Positions 36,608 through 47,600 of a stretch of 64,000 nucleotides of DNA are shown here, piece after piece. Where the stretch lies: sequence record EF437941; one strand, given 5' to 3'. The notes under the pieces are model-generated. The model did not search any database and was not told the origin of the DNA. It worked only from the letters and a program-made list of their open reading frames with translations. Each line of letters starts with the position of its first letter. Position 1 is the stretch's first letter. Both the position numbers and the translations under genes were made by a program. Source of the stretch: Escherichia phage Phi1.

Positions 36608-37828
36608 TTATACTGCCATTTGAGCGGTGATCGCTGGATGGCTTTGATAGTTGTGAATTTTAAAGTCTTTCGGAGTCTTTGTCAATACCTCATCTAAAGA
36701 TTTAAATTCCGGCAACTCAATTGTTGGTTTATCAAACGGAACACGGCTTAACTGTTCCATAACTTGATCAAAATGGTTTTTGTAAATGTGAGTATCTCCA
36801 CCAGAGAAAATCAGTTCTCCTACCTCAAGATCACACATTTTCGCTATGATGTGAGTTAACAGCGCATAGCTGGCGACGTTAAAGGGCAAGCCCAAAAAGC
36901 TGTCTACGCTTCGCTGAAACCACATACAAGACAGTTTACCCTCATTGACATAGAATTGCACGAACGGATGACATACACCTAATACAGCATTATGTGTTCC
37001 TTGTACGTTCCACGAGTCAATAATGATCCGGCGATCCGTTGGATTGTTTTTAATTTGTTCAATCACGTTTTGTAACTGGTCTTCCCAAATCTTCGGGCGA
37101 TAGACATATTCTTCATCGTCTTTAGTGCTCGATGTGTCTACGTCCATACTAACAAAGATCGTGGTATCCGGTGCTAAAATGTCACCGCCCAGATAATCAC
37201 TATCAAGCAGATAATCGAAATAACCACTATCTACCCATTCCTGGAATCCCCACAAGCAATATGCATCATTAACAAAATTAGATTGAGTCTTCCAGTGGTC
37301 TGCTACCAGAATACAATCAAACTCTTCATAAATCATACCACGCCAGATAGCACATAAACGGTCTTCTGTGTCATTGGTTGGCGTAAAGTCTTCTACCCAC
37401 GGGTGTTTAAATGTATGTGTATATTTGCTCTTAACGCGCTTAATTTTGATTTCACCGTGTGGATGAATCGGTTTGCGTCGCCATGACATACCATACATAT
37501 TTCCGACATTATAACCATTGAATCGCAAAGGATTCTTTTCTTTCATATCAAGACAGTTGCCGCGCCAAATGTCGAAGGCTTCTTCGTCAAACTTACCGCG
37601 TGTAATTTCCTGTAAGCGACGGCGGTCGAGTGATCCCTCCATAAACCATAGCAACTCGCCAATTACAGAGGATGTAGCCATCTTTTTAGTGGTCAGTAAG
37701 GGGAAACCCTTGCTTAAATCAATTCGCATCTCTGCGCCGAATTTAGAGAGCGTACCTACCCCCGTTCGATCTTCACGAGGCCAGCCATTATCAAGAACAT
37801 CACGCAATAGTTTCAAATATTCTTTCAT
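36608..37828 (-). CDS. td: Thymidylate synthase with a large in-frame insertion
   Basis: ThyA motifs throughout (DRTGVGT, catalytic VCHPFVQFY, SVDSFLGLPFN, C-terminal ...MAV); 406 aa against ~286 aa in T4 owing to a ~128-aa insert after GMSWRR. Confidence 0.8.
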   Translation of the reverse strand: MKEYLKLLRDVLDNGWPREDRTGVGTLSKFGAEMRIDLSKGFPLLTTKKMATSSVIGELLWFMEGSLDRRRLQEITRGKFDEEAFDIWRGNCLDMKEKNPLRFNGYNVGNMYGMSWRRKPIHPHGEIKIKRVKSKYTHTFKHPWVEDFTPTNDTEDRLCAIWRGMIYEEFDCILVADHWKTQSNFVNDAYCLWGFQEWVDSGYFDYLLDSDYLGGDILAPDTTIFVSMDVDTSSTKDDEEYVYRPKIWEDQLQNVIEQIKNNPTDRRIIIDSWNVQGTHNAVLGVCHPFVQFYVNEGKLSCMWFQRSVDSFLGLPFNVASYALLTHIIAKMCDLEVGELIFSGGDTHIYKNHFDQVMEQLSRVPFDKPTIELPEFKSLDEVLTKTPKDFKIHNYQSHPAITAQMAV

Positions 37829-38162: not shown

Positions 38163-38744
38163 TTACGCCTTCTTACGTTCTAAAATTTGTTCGCTGATCA
38201 GGTAATTATCAAGGAAGTAATTATGTTCTTCTTTGGTTACAAAGTCAAAATATAATTCCTGAATCATTTCCTTAGAGATACCAACATCATATTCAAATGG
38301 ATCGTTGATTCCTGAACGTTGAACATACGTTAACACAATACGGTCCGCAAAGTCAACCGCTTTTTCAATCAGGGAAGGTCCACCAATAACGCTTACCAAA
38401 CCTTGCAATTTCTCTATGACTTCTAATAATTCCTTCAATCCACCATCATTAGTAATCGCGGTATACACATCAGGTTGTTCGCCGTTTTTTGCTTTCGGTG
38501 CTGGCTTACTGGTATCGGTACTAACAACCACATTCACACGACCTTCCAGTGCTTTAGGGAGACTTTCAAAGGTATTACGTCCCATTACTACCGCCGCAAG
38601 TTCAACATCTCCCATAGTGCGCATTTTAAAGTTTTCCATGTCCTTTTTGATTGGACGACCCCACGGTAAACCGCCTTTAAAACCAAAAGCCCAATTTTCA
38701 TCTGACATTTTAGTGTCACCAATCGCAAATACACATTGAATCAT
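38163..38744 (-). CDS. frd: Dihydrofolate reductase
   Basis: DHFR signature GGLPWGRP and overall similarity to T4 Frd. Confidence 0.85.
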   Translation of the reverse strand: MIQCVFAIGDTKMSDENWAFGFKGGLPWGRPIKKDMENFKMRTMGDVELAAVVMGRNTFESLPKALEGRVNVVVSTDTSKPAPKAKNGEQPDVYTAITNDGGLKELLEVIEKLQGLVSVIGGPSLIEKAVDFADRIVLTYVQRSGINDPFEYDVGISKEMIQELYFDFVTKEEHNYFLDNYLISEQILERKKA

Positions 38745-38759
38745 AATATAAATCTCCCA

Positions 38760-39089
38760 TCAAATCAGTTTGAAATAGTTTTCGTTTACATTTTCTTCTG
38801 TGATTGCTGTCTTAAATTCTTGACCGTTATCCGGTGTGATGAAATAACGATCAGAATAATCACGAAAACGTTTTAAGTGAGATACCCCAACATTAACACC
38901 ATTTTCCCAAAAACGAAAGGTAATCATTTTTGGTTCATATCGATAGTCGCTGGTTAACACAGTACCGTCACCGCGACGGGCTTCATAAACCGTAATACAT
39001 TCACGATTAGCGGCTTTAAGGCATTCTTCAATAGTGCCGCACGAGATAATACTTACCTTTTCATCTACGATTTGTTCTACAGTCCACAT
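38760..39089 (-). CDS. Hypothetical protein
   Basis: 109 aa with own promoter cassette and GAGGA RBS. Confidence 0.5.
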   Translation of the reverse strand: MWTVEQIVDEKVSIISCGTIEECLKAANRECITVYEARRGDGTVLTSDYRYEPKMITFRFWENGVNVGVSHLKRFRDYSDRYFITPDNGQEFKTAITEENVNENYFKLI

Positions 39090-39120
39090 AATATAGTCCT
39101 CACTTTGTTTCGATGTTTGT

Positions 39121-39149
39121 ATTATACACTGTTGCGTTACGCTGTCAAC
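39121..39149 (-). promoter_or_regulatory. Early promoter cassette (TTGACA-N16-TATAAT)
   Basis: Conserved -35, -10 and leader. Confidence 0.55.
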
Positions 39150-40519
39150 TCTTTTTCAAAAGATTTTACGATATACATGATAGTGCTCAATTCAGACGGC
39201 GCTACTGTTTCTGTGTAGCCATCCGGCATATCTTCTTTTGATATATAGGAAGTTTTATCTTTCATTGCTTCCTTGATCTTGTTCTCTAAGTCTAAGATCT
39301 TTTGACCGTCTTGTAAAGTCAATTCATAAAAGATCTCGTGATCGAACTTAGAAACACGAGATTGGTTTCTCATTCGTTCTTGTGTTGTTAAATTGGTTAT
39401 TCCAAACTTAACTGCCGTTAACGATTTATGTTTGTTTAGTTTCTGTACATAAAATGTTCCAGGTTTTATAGGTTGATAGCCCATTTTAGAACATTTTCTG
39501 CATCTTGTTCCAGATTGTACAAATTTACTATATGTTGGTGTATACTCATGACCCATTTCACATGTAATTTTTAATCTTGTTTCGACCCCAGAATAGCTAC
39601 CTCCACAAAATCCGTGAAATTTATTATTACCCAACACGGAAATTATATTTTTTATTGCATCGTCTTCGTTCCTGCGACCACTACATACTCCACATCTATA
39701 TCCACCATGAAAAAAATCACTAAACGCAATATTGTACTCGTGTCCATTATTACACGTCATATTAAGTCTCGTCCTTATATTTTCGTATTTTCCACCAACA
39801 AATCCATTGAAAATATGGTCTCCTTTGACCGAATTAATTCTATCTAACGCGGTAGTTTCTGTTAAACGCTTGGTCCCGCAGCATTCTGGGCATCTAGTTC
39901 CTTGAATAAAATGACCATACGTTGGTTGATATATGTGTCCATTATTACACTCTATTATTAACTTTGTTTTATGTGCACCAATGTAAGCACCACCAACAAA
40001 TCCATGAAATTTTTCATCGACCAGTGCGTTGATGATATTTTGTATAGCTTCATCATTCGATTTTTTGTGTTTATTATTGCAAATTGGACATGTATTGACA
40101 CCACCAATTATGCTGGAATAACATCTATGGTATTCGTGACCGTGTTCTTTACATTTTAATATAATTTTAGATGTCGATACATTTTTAAACTCTTCTGTCG
40201 TGAAACCCATAAACTCGCTATCTGTTAATGAAGATTTGATATCATCAATAACTTGTTCGGTTGATTTCTTTGCATTGGGTGCGCATAAACCACACTTGGT
40301 TTTTCTTCCAACTAGTGTTTTAATAGTTTTTGTGTGTGTTGTGTGTCCTTTATCGCACATTATACATACCCTTGTATCACATCCTTTCCAATCATCAACA
40401 AACCCGAGAAATTTGTAATTTATAGAGTGACAATATTCGCGTACTGTATTCTCGTGAATTGTCGGTTGTTTTTGTCTCTTACCAACGCAAATGTCCTTAG
40501 CAAAGTATGTTTTCATCAT
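39137..40519 (-). CDS. Five-fold zinc-finger repeat protein with T5orf172 (GIY-YIG-like) C-terminal domain
   Basis: Five repeats of roughly F.GF.GG.Y...(T/R)L...C..GH.Y...(F)..G..C..C; C-terminus GTFYVQK...AVKFGIT resembles T5orf172; start at the internal Met with GGAGGA RBS. Confidence 0.5.
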   Translation of the reverse strand: MMKTYFAKDICVGKRQKQPTIHENTVREYCHSINYKFLGFVDDWKGCDTRVCIMCDKGHTTHTKTIKTLVGRKTKCGLCAPNAKKSTEQVIDDIKSSLTDSEFMGFTTEEFKNVSTSKIILKCKEHGHEYHRCYSSIIGGVNTCPICNNKHKKSNDEAIQNIINALVDEKFHGFVGGAYIGAHKTKLIIECNNGHIYQPTYGHFIQGTRCPECCGTKRLTETTALDRINSVKGDHIFNGFVGGKYENIRTRLNMTCNNGHEYNIAFSDFFHGGYRCGVCSGRRNEDDAIKNIISVLGNNKFHGFCGGSYSGVETRLKITCEMGHEYTPTYSKFVQSGTRCRKCSKMGYQPIKPGTFYVQKLNKHKSLTAVKFGITNLTTQERMRNQSRVSKFDHEIFYELTLQDGQKILDLENKIKEAMKDKTSYISKEDMPDGYTETVAPSELSTIMYIVKSFEKELTA

Positions 40520-40546
40520 TTTTATCCTCCGTTGTTCGATGTGTGC

Positions 40547-40575
40547 ATGATACATGACCACATAAGCATGTCAAC
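40547..40575 (-). promoter_or_regulatory. Early promoter-like element (TTGACA with weak -10)
   Basis: -35 well conserved; -10 degenerate (TATCAT). Confidence 0.35.
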
Positions 40576-40599
40576 ACCTTTTTCATAAATTTTTAGGCA

Positions 40600-40625
40600 A
40601 TAAAAAAGCCTCCCCGAAGGGAGGC
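40600..40625 (-). terminator. Rho-independent terminator after gene 32
   Basis: GCCTCCC-TTCG-GGGAGGC hairpin followed on the minus strand by UUUUUUAUU. Confidence 0.7.
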
Positions 40626-40636
40626 TGTAAAATTCA

Positions 40637-41605
40637 TTACATCGCTAACAGAGAGTCCAGGTCATCCAGATCAGAAGCGGAGGAAGTACCGCCACCCAGA
40701 TCCAGCGATGCCATCAGGTCATCAGCGGAAGAATCTAACGCCGTGCTAGCTGCGTTAATACCAACTACAGTGCTAGCTGCGGTAATACCAGCGTCGAATG
40801 CATTCATCTGTGCGTCAAAATCATCAAGCTGGCTGTTAATCGCTGCCGCAGCACTGGAAGCCGCAGCACCAGCTACCATAGACACACCCATAGTTTTCTT
40901 AAATTTGGTTTCCAGTTCATCGAACGGTTTAAACTGGCTAGGCGCTACAATCTCACTCAGATCAACCATGTTTTCCATCAGGTATTTCTGATATGCTTCG
41001 TCTTCAATCTTCGGAAGCTGTGATTGCTGCATGACACGAGAATCATCATAGTTGTGGTGTATATCAACCTTCTTAGCTTTCAGGACGAAGTTAGCGCCAG
41101 AGAACACACAAGTTACATCTACCGGAACTTGGCCCATATCGGTATTCACGTTCACCATTGCAACGATCTTATCATAAATTTTCTGACCGAAGCGGAATTT
41201 GAATACCTTACCTTCATTTTCTGGTGCTTGAGGATCTTTCAGTACCAGAATATTTGCGTAGTAGGACGCTTTACGCTTAATCAGTTGCCATTCGGTTTTA
41301 TCGGTATTGTATAGGTCTTTTTCGTTAATATATTTGCACACAGGGCAAGAATCAAAATCACCGTGGGTGCTTGAGCAGTTTTCCCAATACCATTTGCCAT
41401 TAACTTTGAAGGAATGGTTTACCAGTTTCACAATCGGCAGACCGTCTTCTGTCTTAGACGGCAGGAAGCGAATCAGGGCTTCACCGTTACCTGCTGCATC
41501 AGTCTTAATCTTCCACTCTTTCGGATCTTCTTTGGAGAAACCGTTGCCACCTTTCAGTGCGGCCAGTTGAGCTTGCAGTTTGGAGCTATCTTGACGTTTA
41601 AACAT
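40637..41605 (-). CDS. 32: Single-stranded DNA-binding protein gp32
   Basis: Strong match to T4 gp32 (IRFLPSK, zinc site [10 protein letters not shown], acidic Ser/Asp-rich C-terminal tail). Confidence 0.95.
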
Positions 41606-41641
41606 ATTCACTATTCCTTCTTTTGATTAATTTACTAGACT

Positions 41642-41670
41642 ATTATACAGATTTAAATTTACTTGTCAAC
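41642..41670 (-). promoter_or_regulatory. Sigma70-like promoter upstream of gene 32 (TTGACA-N16-TATAAT)
   Basis: Consensus hexamers about 35 nt upstream of the gp32 ATG. Confidence 0.5.
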
Positions 41671-42346
41671 TATTTGTTTCGGCTTTTAATTGAGATATTT
41701 CTTTACACTCTTTAACTACTTTAACAAATAATGCTCTTGCTTTTGCGGCGTCAATAACAAGTAGTTTCTTGTACGCCTTCATTTTAACACTATAAGTTTG
41801 CCAAATCAAGTCTTTGGCTACCTTGTCGTGTTCGTCGATTATATTTAGAAAGCTATCTAACAACATAAACGACTCAAACGATATAATCCGATTTTGCAGT
41901 AGTTTAAATATACCGCTAGTTTCGGTTGCGGGATTGTATGTAATTAGCTCTTTAAGAGTAACCCCGCGTTTCTCGGAGAAGTATACCAGACTTTTAATGT
42001 CATCGTCAAATCTTGTTGCTGCATCGGTTATCTTTCCTATGTATTCCATATAAAAGCCGTATGCGTCAACATCAGTGATTTCACCTACCCATGCATCGGT
42101 ATTAGCTACCAGATTGCTTAGGAATAGGAAGTATAATTCTCTTAGATTGTACTTTTCCGCTAATTTTGCGAAATAATACTTATCTCTGCGTTTATTGAAT
42201 GCGGCATCAGACAACCGCATCCTCCAATTGTATTTTACGCAATCATAACGCCCGTTCATGTGAGCTTTCATCATGCAATATAACATATACACAGATTTAG
42301 CATTAATTCGCATATCTGGATCTGGAGGAAGACGGTTTCTGATCAT
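41666..42346 (-). CDS. 59: Helicase loader gp59
   Basis: Extensive similarity to T4 gp59 (KSVYMLY, NWRMRLSDAAFNKRRDKYYF, SNLVANTDAW). Confidence 0.9.
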   Translation of the reverse strand: MIRNRLPPDPDMRINAKSVYMLYCMMKAHMNGRYDCVKYNWRMRLSDAAFNKRRDKYYFAKLAEKYNLRELYFLFLSNLVANTDAWVGEITDVDAYGFYMEYIGKITDAATRFDDDIKSLVYFSEKRGVTLKELITYNPATETSGIFKLLQNRIISFESFMLLDSFLNIIDEHDKVAKDLIWQTYSVKMKAYKKLLVIDAAKARALFVKVVKECKEISQLKAETNS

Positions 42347-43492: not shown

Positions 43493-44437
43493 TTAGAACT
43501 CACCAATTTTCTGCAACATTTTAACTAACGCATTTGTTACAAAATAGTTATAAATTTTACCGCGTGGTGCTGGTTTAGATTTTTCCCATGACTCAAGAAT
43601 CTGATTCTGAATATCATCTGGGATGTAATCGAAGTCAATAAGTTCGCGGTTTTCGTCAAAACGTCGTGCTTCTTCTTCTGTCATCAAAGACTTTGGATCT
43701 TCGGCATCGAAAATTTGCTCTAACCATTTGGTTGCAACTGGTTTAGCTCGTTCCCCTTCCAGTCTAGAGATAATGAAATCACTACGACACTTGACAGAAG
43801 CCACACCGTCTTTTGCGTCACCCTTAACACATTTTACCATAAGGTCTTTGTAAGGGCTACCATATTTGCATTTCTTCCATGCTTTCTGTACTGGCGCCCA
43901 CTGTTTCACGTTTTTGTATTTGTGCAACTGCGTGTAGTCACCATCACCTGAGTTGATCAGCACCTGGCGACCTTCTACAGAAAACTTTTTAGTTAATACA
44001 GCGATTATATCATCTGCTTCAACTTTGTCAACCTTAATAACGTGATAAGGCATGTTCTCTTTAAACTCTTCGGTGATCTTATTGATCGCAGCAAAGATCA
44101 TCTCCCAATCACGCGGATCTGCGTCTCGTTTTTCCTTACGGTTGCGTTTATAGTAAGGGGCGATATCACGTCGCCAGTAACCTTTGCTTGAATCAAAAGC
44201 AAGCACCGTAATAGGGTATTGCTCTTTGAATTTTGTCATATTATAACGCATGGTGTCAAGAATAAGATGACGGATCATGCCTTCATTAATAGATCTCCGG
44301 TTAAAGGTATGCGAGATAGTCGCAATCATAAGCTGCGACATATCAATCAAATGCACACCTTCCGGCAGTTTATCTTCTGGATCATCGAAGAAATCATTAA
44401 GTGTAGCGGTAGTTTTTGTAAACGGGTTATACGTCAT
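43493..44437 (-). CDS. rnh: RNase H / flap endonuclease
   Basis: Similarity to T4 RNase H (GDAKDGVASVKCRSDF, PRGKIYNYF). Confidence 0.9.
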   Translation of the reverse strand: MTYNPFTKTTATLNDFFDDPEDKLPEGVHLIDMSQLMIATISHTFNRRSINEGMIRHLILDTMRYNMTKFKEQYPITVLAFDSSKGYWRRDIAPYYKRNRKEKRDADPRDWEMIFAAINKITEEFKENMPYHVIKVDKVEADDIIAVLTKKFSVEGRQVLINSGDGDYTQLHKYKNVKQWAPVQKAWKKCKYGSPYKDLMVKCVKGDAKDGVASVKCRSDFIISRLEGERAKPVATKWLEQIFDAEDPKSLMTEEEARRFDENRELIDFDYIPDDIQNQILESWEKSKPAPRGKIYNYFVTNALVKMLQKIGEF

Positions 44438-44694: not shown

Positions 44695-47600
44695 ATGGCA
44701 GATTTTTCTCAACATTTCAAGGCCACATTTGGCTTTGACGCTGGTAATGAAAAGGTCGTCAATGTAGCATTGGCTGATAAGAATGTCAACACCGATGCGG
44801 TCAACGTTGAATTTTTCAATTACCATAATGGTATTACTCAGTATGACACAACTCGCGGTTATGATCAATACGGAACTACAATCTATCAAAACCGTCCGTA
44901 TTATGCAAAAGAAGATATCACAAAGCCAGCAGGTGATTTTGACCCGACTAAATGGCAAGCACTGCGCACGGACCCACGTTGGGATTATATTGCAGCAACT
45001 TCCGGTGATACTCCTTTACAGTCTGGTGATTATATCGCAGCAGATGGTCAATTTGCAAACTTGACTTTCTCTATGCCAACTAAACCAGCAGAGGGAGACA
45101 CTATAACAGTAAAAGATATCGGTGGCAAGTGTGGTGTTAACGAATTATCGTTCTTGAGTTCAGGACATGAGTTTTACCATAACGGTAATGTGTATAACCG
45201 AAAATGGTATTGTACTACCCCGTATGCAATGAACTATTTCATCTTTGTTCGTAATCGTTGGCATGTTTATCAGACAGGAACAGAGCCACGCGGTGTGTAC
45301 GCACAGCCAGCGATTGATGCTATTCAAATGCAGAATGGTGATCAGGTATTTCGTCGTAGTTCATTGGGTAATATTACCTTAGTGCTTCCTAAGTTTGCCA
45401 ACAATGGCGACATGATCCAGACTACAGACCTTGACGGATTAACCGCAACCAACCACGTTACGGTTAAAGTTCATGAGCACGCAGAAGAACAATCAATTGG
45501 CACGTCCGGTCTAAAAGAGATTATCGGTAAGCGTAGCGGTCATGGTGTATTCATCTTTGACAAGACGGAAAACTTATGGCGTTTGTGGGATGGTGATCAG
45601 TCTGTTCGTCTTAAACCGATCATCGATGACACTCGCTTGCAACCTAATAGCTATGTTGCTGTATTTGGTGATCGTGATGTTACTCTGACGCTGCCGACCA
45701 ATGTCGAGCCGGGTGATCGTATTCAAGTTTCTATGCAGTATATGCACGGAAACCAGAATTGCCGTATTATCACCGCCACAGAGGATACAAAAATCCTTAT
45801 GTCGAAAAACATGGTTCAGTTGCCGAAGCGTAGCGAGTACCCATTCAATGGGACCGATACATGGAAGGAAGTGTCTGAATTGTCGTTCAATGCGGCTAGT
45901 GATTATGTACCTTATCTGGAGTTCTCTTATTCAGAAGGTGATGATGGTAAGAAACATTGGCTGGTAGCACACTCTCATCCGATCGTCGAACGAGTAGACC
46001 CTACTCGTAAAGAGCGTGTGGGTGTAATTGCACTGGCTACCCAAACTGAAACGAATAAAAACCATGAAGAGAATCCTAGCGACGAAGTTGCAGTAACACC
46101 AAAAATGCTGGCTAATAAAACCGCCAACGAAACTCGACGCGGTATTGCTCGCATTGCGACTCAAGCGGAAACGCATCAAGATACTGGTTCTAACTTCCTG
46201 GATGATGTTATCGTTACGCCTAAAAAGTTAAATGACTGTGTTGCTACCGAAGCCCGTCGTGGTGTGATGGAAATTGCAACCCAGCACGAAACCAATGAAG
46301 GTTTAGACGATACCCGCGCTATTACTCCTAAGAAATTAGAAGAACGTCGCGCTTCCGAAGATCTCGCTGGTATTGCTGAAATTGTTCAGGTTGGCGGTAG
46401 TGCTGCCGCTCGACGCGGCGAAGCTGGTACAGGGATCTATAACATCAATGACCATGCTAAAATTGTTACGCCAAAAAACATCAACGAAGTCAAGGCGACC
46501 GAAACTTCCCGTGGTGTTGGCTATCTGGCAACTGACGCGGAAGTGCAAGGGGCTACAGAATCAACCCCGCAAGATGCTTTACTAATCACGACTCGCACGC
46601 TAACGAAACGTACTGCTACCGAATCGCGCACTGGTATCGCTGAAATTGCAACTCAGGAAGAAACAAACTTAGGTCAAAGTGATAACCATATCATCACGCC
46701 TAAAAAGCTGCATACTCGCCGTGCAACGGAAACTTTACACGGTTTAGCAGAAATTGCAACTCAGCCGGAATTTGACGCAGGTCTTGACGATGCTCGCATT
46801 TCTACCCCATTGAAGATTAAAACCTTCTTTGAGAATGCACAGCGTTTGAAAGTAGATCCGACTCAGGGGCTTAACCTTACTGGTGATTTGTGGCAAGGTA
46901 TCATGATCCGCGGTCTGGACGCAACCGAAGACACAAAAGGTGTCGCTAAAGTTGCTACTACTCAGCTTACGGATGCTGGTCAAGATGATACTACAATCAT
47001 CACGCCTAAAAAGCTGCAAGGCAAAAAGGCCACAGAAGGTAAAGAAGGTATTATCCGAGTTGGTACTCAAGCCGAAACCGTGGCTGGTACACTGGCTAAT
47101 GTAGCAATTTCTCCGAAGAACTTCAAATATGTTGTTCAGACAGAGGATACATGGAAAGCAACCGAAGCGCGTCGTGGATTCTTGAAAGTTGCTACTCAGG
47201 AAAACTGTTTTGTTGGTGATAATCTGCAAGGTTCTACTCAAGAACTAGGAAACTACCAGCATGACGGAATTGCTGTTACCCCGAAAGGATTAAACTACGC
47301 ACTTGCTAATTTCTTACCTAAGATGGCAACCGCTCAGAATAGTTTGAAATTAGGTAACGTAGAGGCCGCTAAATGGGCGCGTAGAGACATTGACCAGACC
47401 ATAGAGAGCAATTACACGTTTAATAAAAACGTTAACGTGAAGGGCGATTTAGAGTGCTTAAAATCAGGTTCCTTTGAAACTCTGTATGTGACTAAGAACT
47501 CTACTGATGATCCGAGTAATGGTCATCTGGTGTTGGGTGAGCGTGGAGTTGACGGTCACACCGGAATTACTCTGCATGGCACAACCGCATCGGAAGGCAT

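Follow-up and report, generated by a model that had tools for sequence, protein, structure and literature searches.

Introduction

Homing endonuclease genes of the T5orf172 type that carry one to several CapR/DUF723/DUF4379 fingers, arranged as beads on a string, have already been defined (Barth, Dunham & Seed 2023, PMC10448857), and fusions of these fingers to T5orf172 are a described homing-endonuclease class (PMC10448857, PMC8096241). Recombination within the finger arrays has been reported, as has the swapping of unrelated DNA-binding regions onto homologous T5orf172 domains (PMC10448857). Here we describe a gene between gene 32 and frd in a 64,000-nucleotide (nt) stretch of Escherichia phage Phi1 (sequence record EF437941), hereafter the window. 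The window comes from a Krischvirus (RB49-like Straboviridae coliphage) genome, the closest record being phage FL38. Its product, of 460 amino acids (aa), is in our view likely to be a homing-type endonuclease from the T5orf172/MUG113 branch of the GIY-YIG superfamily. The gene is free-standing and probably mobile.

The genes of Barth and colleagues (ICP1 gp165 and gp174 and those of Vibrio phages Helene, 1.187.F1 and 184E37.3a; PMC10448857) have the same layout, with fingers at the N terminus, of which as many as six have been reported, and a T5orf172/MUG113 nuclease at the C terminus, and they too are free-standing and adjoin essential genes. The tail of the 460-aa protein has a direct tblastn match, at 41% identity, to the gene of phage 184E37.3a. 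An original prediction, made from the Phi1 sequence alone, had suggested that the architecture may represent a distinct new element; this part did not hold, as the class was already in the literature. The Phi1 gene nevertheless differs from the published ones in several respects. Its host clade, Krischvirus (T4-like coliphages), is absent from the main text of that paper, and its zinc site is C-H-C-C rather than CxxC...CxC. Its nuclease belongs to a divergent 'PDG[YFW]TET' subfamily, largely missed by the Pfam models for T5orf172 and MUG113, a breakpoint lies inside the nuclease domain, the last codons form the promoter of the next gene, and a large allele series occupies one site.

Other described systems share individual parts with this gene. 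PLE CapR has a homologous zinc-finger DNA-binding domain, the source of Pfam PF21817, in which DNA binding depends on the cysteines/zinc ligands (Netter et al. 2021, PMC8096241); it differs in being a satellite-encoded transcriptional repressor with a single finger domain and without a nuclease. ICP1 Odn (Gp88; Barth et al. 2021, PMC8263062) has the same T5orf172-type GIY-YIG domain, with the conserved Arg and Glu and without the helix-1 His/Tyr, and it cleaves DNA in vitro, an activity abolished by mutating the equivalent Glu. In contrast to the Phi1 protein, Odn has a RepA_N DNA-binding part in place of zinc fingers, and its role is anti-satellite and origin-directed, not homing. The PeSL cassettes of RB49 and phi1, phages of the same genus, lie in a hyperplastic region and likewise consist of a stem-loop and early sigma-70 promoter flanking a variable open reading frame (ORF; Arbiol et al. 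2010, PMC2839356). Unlike in those cassettes, the downstream element at our locus is promoter-only and overlaps the 3′ end of the ORF, and the endonuclease gene goes unmentioned in the PeSL paper. The Seg and I-Tev enzymes of T4 likewise belong to the GIY-YIG superfamily and join a nuclease to a DNA-binding part, as free-standing or intron-borne mobile nucleases of T4-like phages. SegG adjoins gene 32 in T4.

Five CapR-type fingers form an N-terminal array

The original prediction had placed the ORF on the coordinates below, and our analysis agrees. The encoded protein matches PHROG 681, 'endonuclease', with an E-value of 1.8e-116.

39137..40519, minus strand: endonuclease ORF, 460 codons plus stop, with ATG at 40519..40517 and TAA at 39139..39137

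A hidden Markov model built from the repeats resolves five units of ~65 aa, each with a putative set of four zinc ligands.

40271..40462, minus strand: zinc-finger repeat 1 (aa 20-83), ligands C55, H59, C76 and C79, matched by Pfam CapR
40067..40270, minus strand: zinc-finger repeat 2 (aa 84-151), ligands C123, H128, C144 and C147, matched by Pfam CapR and DUF4379
39869..40066, minus strand: zinc-finger repeat 3 (aa 152-217), ligands C191, H195, C210 and C213
39671..39868, minus strand: zinc-finger repeat 4 (aa 218-283), ligands C256, H260, C276 and C279
39479..39670, minus strand: zinc-finger repeat 5 (aa 284-347; aa 282-347 in the hidden Markov model), ligands C320, H324, C340 and C343

Every repeat has F.GF (at aa 37, 103, 171, 237 and 301), then C-x2-3-G-H and, ~15-20 residues on, C-x2-C; eight positions (F, G, F, C, G, H, C, C) do not vary among the repeats. 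The pattern is far beyond chance. Five repeats of an F.GF.GG.Y motif followed by a zinc knuckle had been predicted, of which the repeat number, the F.GF and the C-x2-3-G-H/C-x2-C pairs stand for the whole array, and the GG.Y part applies only to repeats 3-5. Pfam CapR (PF21817) matches in five stretches (E 1.5e-15), scoring 57.6 bits where the cut-off is 24.2. A second Pfam family, DUF4379, described as a 'probable treble-clef zinc finger', matches with an E-value of 9.6e-09. We took CapR membership to mean a Pfam score above the cut-off together with two zinc-ligand pairs ~15-26 residues apart; the cut-off is passed, with a putative first ligand pair of the form C-x3-4-H and not CxxC. The AF2 model of repeat 3 has a pLDDT of 86.

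Protein identity among the five repeats is 21-50%. The duplication that produced them is old, since at the DNA level they have only 16-nt motifs in common and Tandem Repeats Finder detects no DNA-level repeat in the array; the latter result rules out a recent duplication. We also looked for single fingers common to different alleles, but the best match reached only 47%, giving no sign of recent single-finger shuffling.

The C-terminal domain is a divergent GIY-YIG relative of T5orf172 and MUG113

The array is followed by the nuclease domain.

39140..39487, minus strand: GIY-YIG-superfamily (T5orf172/MUG113-like) nuclease domain, aa 345-460 (116 aa)

The two stretches on which a T5orf172/GIY-YIG-like fold had been proposed, GTFYVQK (aa 354-360) and AVKFGIT (aa 369-375), are both in this domain, and the proposal itself is supported by structure prediction and by profile and homolog links. 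The domain is modelled as a GIY-YIG fold with a pLDDT of 96.5, comprising a three-stranded antiparallel sheet and helices in the order beta-beta-alpha-beta-alpha, and solved GIY-YIG nucleases are its best structural matches. Many phage proteins in BFVD match the model with TM scores of 0.75-0.9, among them some named as homing endonuclease, as GIY-YIG domain-containing and as 'T5 Orf172 DNA-binding domain-containing'. Searching the PDB with a profile of the domain yielded nothing but de novo designed repeat proteins, which we rejected as compositional.

The suggested T5orf172 profile search came out negative, with no Pfam match to T5orf172, MUG113 or GIY-YIG in the 460-aa protein at E ≤ 1 or in its isolated C-terminal domain at E ≤ 10. 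Weak Pfam matches to the protein or its isolated domain (AAA_12, SbcD_C and others) were spurious. NCBIfam gave no nuclease match for the protein, and no PADLOC defence-system model matches it. Because the direct Pfam search is negative, we regard the domain as a divergent subfamily that needs profile or fold evidence for its placement. Such evidence comes from intermediate homologs over the same domain. The homologs P0041 and P0044 match it in phmmer (E 2.8e-23 and 4.6e-22), and their C-terminal domains score 26 bits with MUG113 (PF13455) against a cut-off of 22.3; the equivalent segment of a third homolog, P0050, scores 29.5 bits with T5orf172 (PF10544) against a cut-off of 20. In hhalign, the family profile aligns with the P0050 T5orf172 domain over 95 columns (87% probability, E 3.7e-6), and the motifs GxxY, K[IF]GI, R, E and DGxTE line up between the two. 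Among 119 relatives found with the domain profile, 28 match MUG113 and 12 match T5orf172, and none matches another nuclease family. The link to T5orf172/MUG113 is thus transitive and profile-based, and it places the C-terminal domain in the GIY-YIG superfamily, next to these two families.

Residues invariant across the family are Y357, K371-F372-G373-I374, R382, E412, G434 and T436-E437-T438. From their invariance, and by the precedent of GIY-YIG enzymes and Odn, we selected Y357, R382 and E437 as candidate catalytic residues; E412 is also invariant. The family comprises ~2,300 cluster representatives, most of which the Pfam T5orf172 and MUG113 models miss. A locus search with the 67-aa tail gave no confirmed loci, and one with the domain profile gave distant IMG/VR relatives only, none of them from Krischvirus.

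A member of the same nuclease subfamily with 40% identity, T5.141 of phage T5 (L056 1278-2030), lies between the T5 tape-measure and tail-chaperone genes. It has two CapR fingers, and its annotation notes similarity to RB49 ORF239c. We considered T5.141 as the namesake T5orf172 protein, but the Pfam T5orf172 model does not match it. RefSeq names the RB49 and T5 relatives 'endonuclease'.

The gene is a mosaic with a resident 3′ end

Comparison with relatives sets two parts of the gene apart.

39474..40513, minus strand: variable segment, replaced in relatives, which extends from the start codon as far as the nuclease domain and partly into it (breakpoints from blastn comparison with RB49, JEP8, Skers and MIZ6)
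39140..39349, minus strand: backbone-like 3′ tail, the last 70 codons

RB49p240 (ORF239c), annotated 'endonuclease', and the alleles of GEC-3S, JEP8, Skers and kaaroe have the locus, the promoter bracket, the finger type and the last 70 aa (93-99% identical) in common with the Phi1 gene. They differ from it in their arrays and in the N-terminal half of the nuclease. We extended the comparison to 42 cluster representatives of the Krischvirus-type tail, drawn from genomes and metagenomes. The last 70 aa keep the 93-99% identity in 41 of the 42, the preceding 46 aa are 43-74% identical, and the arrays, with 0-6 fingers, are 27-48% identical. At this locus, dozens of unrelated arrays are joined to a nearly identical nuclease tail. 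The same gradient is seen in the mean pairwise nt identity among six genomes.

Last 213 nt of the endonuclease gene: 96.2%
Preceding 138 nt: 71%
Finger arrays: about 50%, effectively unrelated
frd: 93%
Gene 32: 95%

The segments also assort independently. The window and a metagenomic contig, L062, have the array in common (84.5%) but not the N-terminal half of the nuclease (69.6%), whereas Skers and L062 have the nuclease N-terminal half in common (84%) but not the array (51%). The endonuclease gene is therefore a mosaic of at least three independently assorting segments, namely the array and the two halves of the nuclease domain, of which the C-terminal one is backbone-like; this suggests that new specificities arise by array-swapping recombination. 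The last 70 codons would serve as the right-hand homology arm for exchange.

Against its L062 ortholog, the endonuclease gene has a ratio of nonsynonymous to synonymous substitution rates (dN/dS) of 0.16, which indicates purifying selection. For the array alone, dS is 0.70 and dN/dS is 0.12. For the last 70 codons, where the comparison involves few sites, dS is 0.08 and dN/dS is 0.15. The backbone has a dS of ~0.2 in frd, td and gene 59 and of 0.34 in gene 32. The values for the array argue that it is functional and has a deeper history than the backbone; the tail, judging by its divergence, appears either to behave as backbone or to be homogenised.

The gene is patchily distributed at a fixed site

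Uniform presence of the gene in all relatives, which the original prediction held would speak against it, is not what we find: ~23 Krischvirus records are without the gene and have only an unrelated 109-aa ORF at the site, and the Phi1 array occurs in one other phage only. That phage, FL38, is alone among 64 related GenBank records in covering the whole region and having the same protein, a hypothetical protein with 98.7% aa identity. A tblastn comparison finds the conserved-tail type of allele in 22 records and divergent-tail alleles in 5, so that ~27 carry the family at this site; the counts of ~27 and ~23 include a few duplicate records. The alternative ORF occurs in 28 records, 5 of which also have the endonuclease in tandem. 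Presence/absence polymorphism at a fixed locus among close relatives, a mark of homing endonucleases, is accompanied by wide variation in the length of the alleles.

RB49: allele of 485 aa
Whisky: allele of 486 aa
JEP8: allele of 541 aa
Skers: allele of 392 aa
Sf20: allele of 281 aa
MIZ4 (L058 1238-2164): frameshifted Sf20-type copy, annotated as 182 aa
MIZ6, MIZ2 and E26: unrelated 109-aa ORF only

The 182-aa MIZ4 'endonuclease' corresponds to the 3′ part of the 281-aa Sf20-type allele, the 5′ part being broken by frameshifts. MIZ5 gives the same tblastn match. Frameshifted copies are counted in two relatives. The MIZ4 copy is decaying, as is expected late in the life cycle of a homing endonuclease.

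Early promoters bracket the gene

The endonuclease gene has its own transcription and translation signals, and a ~75-nt promoter/leader direct repeat flanks it.

40626..40607, minus strand: intrinsic terminator hairpin of gene 32, upstream of the endonuclease promoter
40574..40547, minus strand: own promoter of the endonuclease gene, sigma-70-type early, TTGACA-16-TATCAT, ~20 nt upstream of the ribosome-binding site
40574..40535, minus strand: upstream bracketing direct repeat, TTGACA-N16-TATNAT-NCANACATCGAA
40530..40525, minus strand: ribosome-binding site GGAGGA of the endonuclease gene, preceding the ATG at 40519
39148..39121, minus strand: early promoter of the downstream ORF, TTGACA-16-TATAAT, overlapping the last endonuclease codons
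39148..39109, minus strand: downstream bracketing direct repeat, with blastn similarity reaching ~39086..39168

As a separate ORF with its own promoter and ribosome-binding site, the gene is free-standing and not borne by an intron or intein; an Rfam search of 38500..41000 found no family and no intron. A longer, GTG-started ORF (474 aa, to 40561) is unlikely, because its start codon would precede the -10 box of the one good promoter. We found no second copy of the endonuclease family within the 64-kb window.

The pattern TTGACA-N16-TATNAT-NCANACATCGAA occurs exactly twice in the 64 kb, where 0 occurrences are expected, and the bracketing repeat also flanks the RB49 allele and the unrelated ORF of MIZ6, which has no endonuclease. 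The upstream unit consists of hairpin and promoter and resembles a PeSL-like terminator/early-promoter unit, whereas the downstream unit has promoter and leader only. Since the downstream promoter copy overlaps the 3′ end of the endonuclease gene, its -35 hexamer encodes L458-T459.

Neighbouring genes and variable cassettes

The predicted position of the gene between frd and gene 32 proved correct, with a small ORF intervening on the frd side. The order on the minus strand is gene 59, gene 32, endonuclease, 109-aa ORF, frd and td, the named genes being identified by Pfam.

41666..42346, minus strand: gene 59
40637..41611, minus strand: gene 32 (gp32)
38760..39089, minus strand: neighbouring 109-aa ORF, between the endonuclease gene and frd
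38163..38744, minus strand: frd (dihydrofolate reductase)

The G+C content of the endonuclease gene and its variable segment is ~0.34, against 0.40-0.45 in the flanks. The neighbouring 109-aa ORF (38760..39089) has no Pfam match. It occurs as two alleles that are ~67% identical at the nt level, one in the window, RB49, JEP8 and MIZ6 and the other in FL38 and Skers, with identity shifting sharply at the flanking promoters. These alleles assort independently of the endonuclease array type, and an attempt to infer the target from them failed, as they do not track array type.

Some relatives have an extra small-ORF cassette between the endonuclease gene and the neighbouring 109-aa ORF (L062, 4427-4750; Cognac, Makalu_001, FL04, FL37 and PTE-Eco09), which indicates that the site holds a variable number of promoter-bounded cassettes. 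The extra ORF of L062 encodes 107 aa; that of the five phages is the 109-aa ORF found by itself in genomes of the MIZ6/E26 type.

Variation extends to the surrounding genes. Skers, MIZ4 and E26 have an additional ~198-aa gene between gene 32 and gene 59 (L004 3759-4355, L058 3200-3796 and L059 2716-3309). Its annotation reads HNH (homing) endonuclease in the first two phages and 'Fis family transcriptional regulator' in E26; in the window, gene 32 and gene 59 are separated by no more than a 54-nt spacer (41612..41665). This is a second mobile-nuclease polymorphism, one gene away from the endonuclease. In frd, a patch of ~200 nt (38400..38600) is 81-91% identical to RB49, MIZ6, Skers and FL38, with a 12-nt indel, and 99-100% identical to JEP8, indicating mosaic recombination within the enzyme gene. 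Two 200-nt patches, 43600..43799 and 45800..45999, are 88-89% identical to FL38 against a background of 97-99% and may likewise be mosaic points. The thymidylate synthase gene (36608..37828, minus strand) encodes 406 aa, with a Pfam match in two stretches and ~120 extra residues mid-protein (roughly aa 130-250). These residues are a protein-level insertion in a continuous ORF, with no intron; a long thymidylate synthase (410 aa) is also present in RB49, JEP8 and L062 and is typical of the clade.

Discussion

Taken with the described class, these results support the interpretation given in the original prediction, and they suggest how a homing-type endonuclease at this site could work. The gene would be transcribed early, from its own sigma-70 promoter. 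Its five tandem CapR-type fingers, each with a C-H-C-C zinc site, would read a long DNA target as beads on a string, and the GIY-YIG-fold C-terminal domain would cut near it. In a mixed infection, a break in a genome without the allele would be repaired from the carrier genome, copying the allele across. Arrays could also be recombined onto the resident nuclease module or tail, and new target specificities may arise in this way; the homology arms for such a swap would be the promoter repeat and the conserved coding sequence at the 3′ end. Related proteins lend the mechanism indirect support, through the ligand-dependent DNA binding of CapR (PMC8096241) and the Glu-dependent cleavage by Odn (PMC8263062).

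Several points weigh against this reading. For the 460-aa protein, we infer zinc binding, DNA binding, cleavage, the target and homing. The Pfam models T5orf172, MUG113 and GIY-YIG are unmatched by the full protein at E ≤ 1 and by the isolated domain at E ≤ 10, and no solved structure is related to the zinc-finger model. The canonical GIY-YIG catalytic set comprises the Tyr of 'GIY', the Tyr of 'YIG', an Arg in helix 1, a metal-binding Glu and an Asn. Here the second Tyr is replaced by a Phe (F372, in KFGIT), we assigned no residue to the Asn, and we identified no counterpart of the His/Tyr in helix 1. A search for the target site from flank polymorphism identified none. The window and FL38 are 97-99% identical overall, so their common array may reflect vertical inheritance. 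Finally, genomes without the endonuclease offer no empty site; instead, a different ORF lies between the same promoter repeats, and recombination between these repeats alone could therefore yield the patchy distribution.

The last point is the core of one alternative, in which the gene is passive cargo and both patchiness and mosaicism come only from homologous recombination between early-promoter (PeSL-type) repeats and conserved coding stretches. The promoter/leader motif does bracket the endonuclease and, in genomes without it, the alternative 109-aa ORF; the neighbouring ORF is likewise two-allelic within the same promoter bounds, and PeSL-flanked cassettes shuffle in RB49 and phi1 (PMC2839356). 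However, passive shuffling leaves unexplained both the breakpoints inside the gene and a conserved nuclease under purifying selection whose catalytic residues are invariant across 2,320 cluster representatives, and it is compatible with homing rather than exclusive of it. We consider cargo alone quite unlikely. The conservation of the nuclease would also suit an active enzyme that the phage has recruited and that no longer spreads itself, but cuts competitors, whether co-infecting phages (marker exclusion), satellites or plasmids, much as ICP1 Odn acts against PLE; array diversity would then be an arms race over target choice. Conserved catalytic residues, purifying selection, the early promoter and the many unrelated arrays on one resident tail at a fixed locus are all consistent with this, and Odn is a precedent for the recruitment of T5orf172 (PMC8263062; PMC10448857). 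On the other hand, the gene is absent from ~23 relatives and frameshifted in MIZ4, a pattern more typical of the life cycle of a selfish element, PADLOC defence-system models are unmatched, and Krischvirus has no known satellite or target. Recruitment thus seems unlikely, if somewhat less so than passive carriage.

The replacement of the second Tyr by Phe raises the further possibility of a DNA-binding protein whose nuclease is dead, perhaps a repressor of transcription as satellite CapR is, in which the finger array is the only working part. CapR itself is a domesticated finger domain of the same family that represses transcription (PMC8096241). Yet CapR has no nuclease domain, whereas the 460-aa protein retains one, with Y357, R382, E412 and E437 invariant, a modelled fold at pLDDT 96.5 and a dN/dS of 0.15 over the last 70 codons. 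A dead nuclease fits poorly with invariant catalytic residues and purifying selection, and we regard it as highly improbable. A homing-type endonuclease is the reading we favor.

The Phi1 endonuclease is one more allele of a phage nuclease class described in 2023, and what is annotated as a 'hypothetical protein' can now be named a CapR-finger/T5orf172-like GIY-YIG endonuclease. What is most worth following is the allele series at the locus. It is conceivable, though on balance doubtful, that the gene 32-frd site of Krischvirus is a natural allele series of modular zinc-finger nucleases, with more than 40 unrelated arrays of 0-6 fingers on a single resident tail. Every array would then be directed at DNA in rival alleles or in the alternative cassette, the alleles would drive against one another, and the series would hold a decipherable finger-to-DNA code. 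The locus is a compact natural system for how homing-type nucleases gain new specificities by recombination, and it bears on the DNA code read by CapR-type fingers and on the mosaicism that such genes shape around the essential replication genes of T4-like phages.

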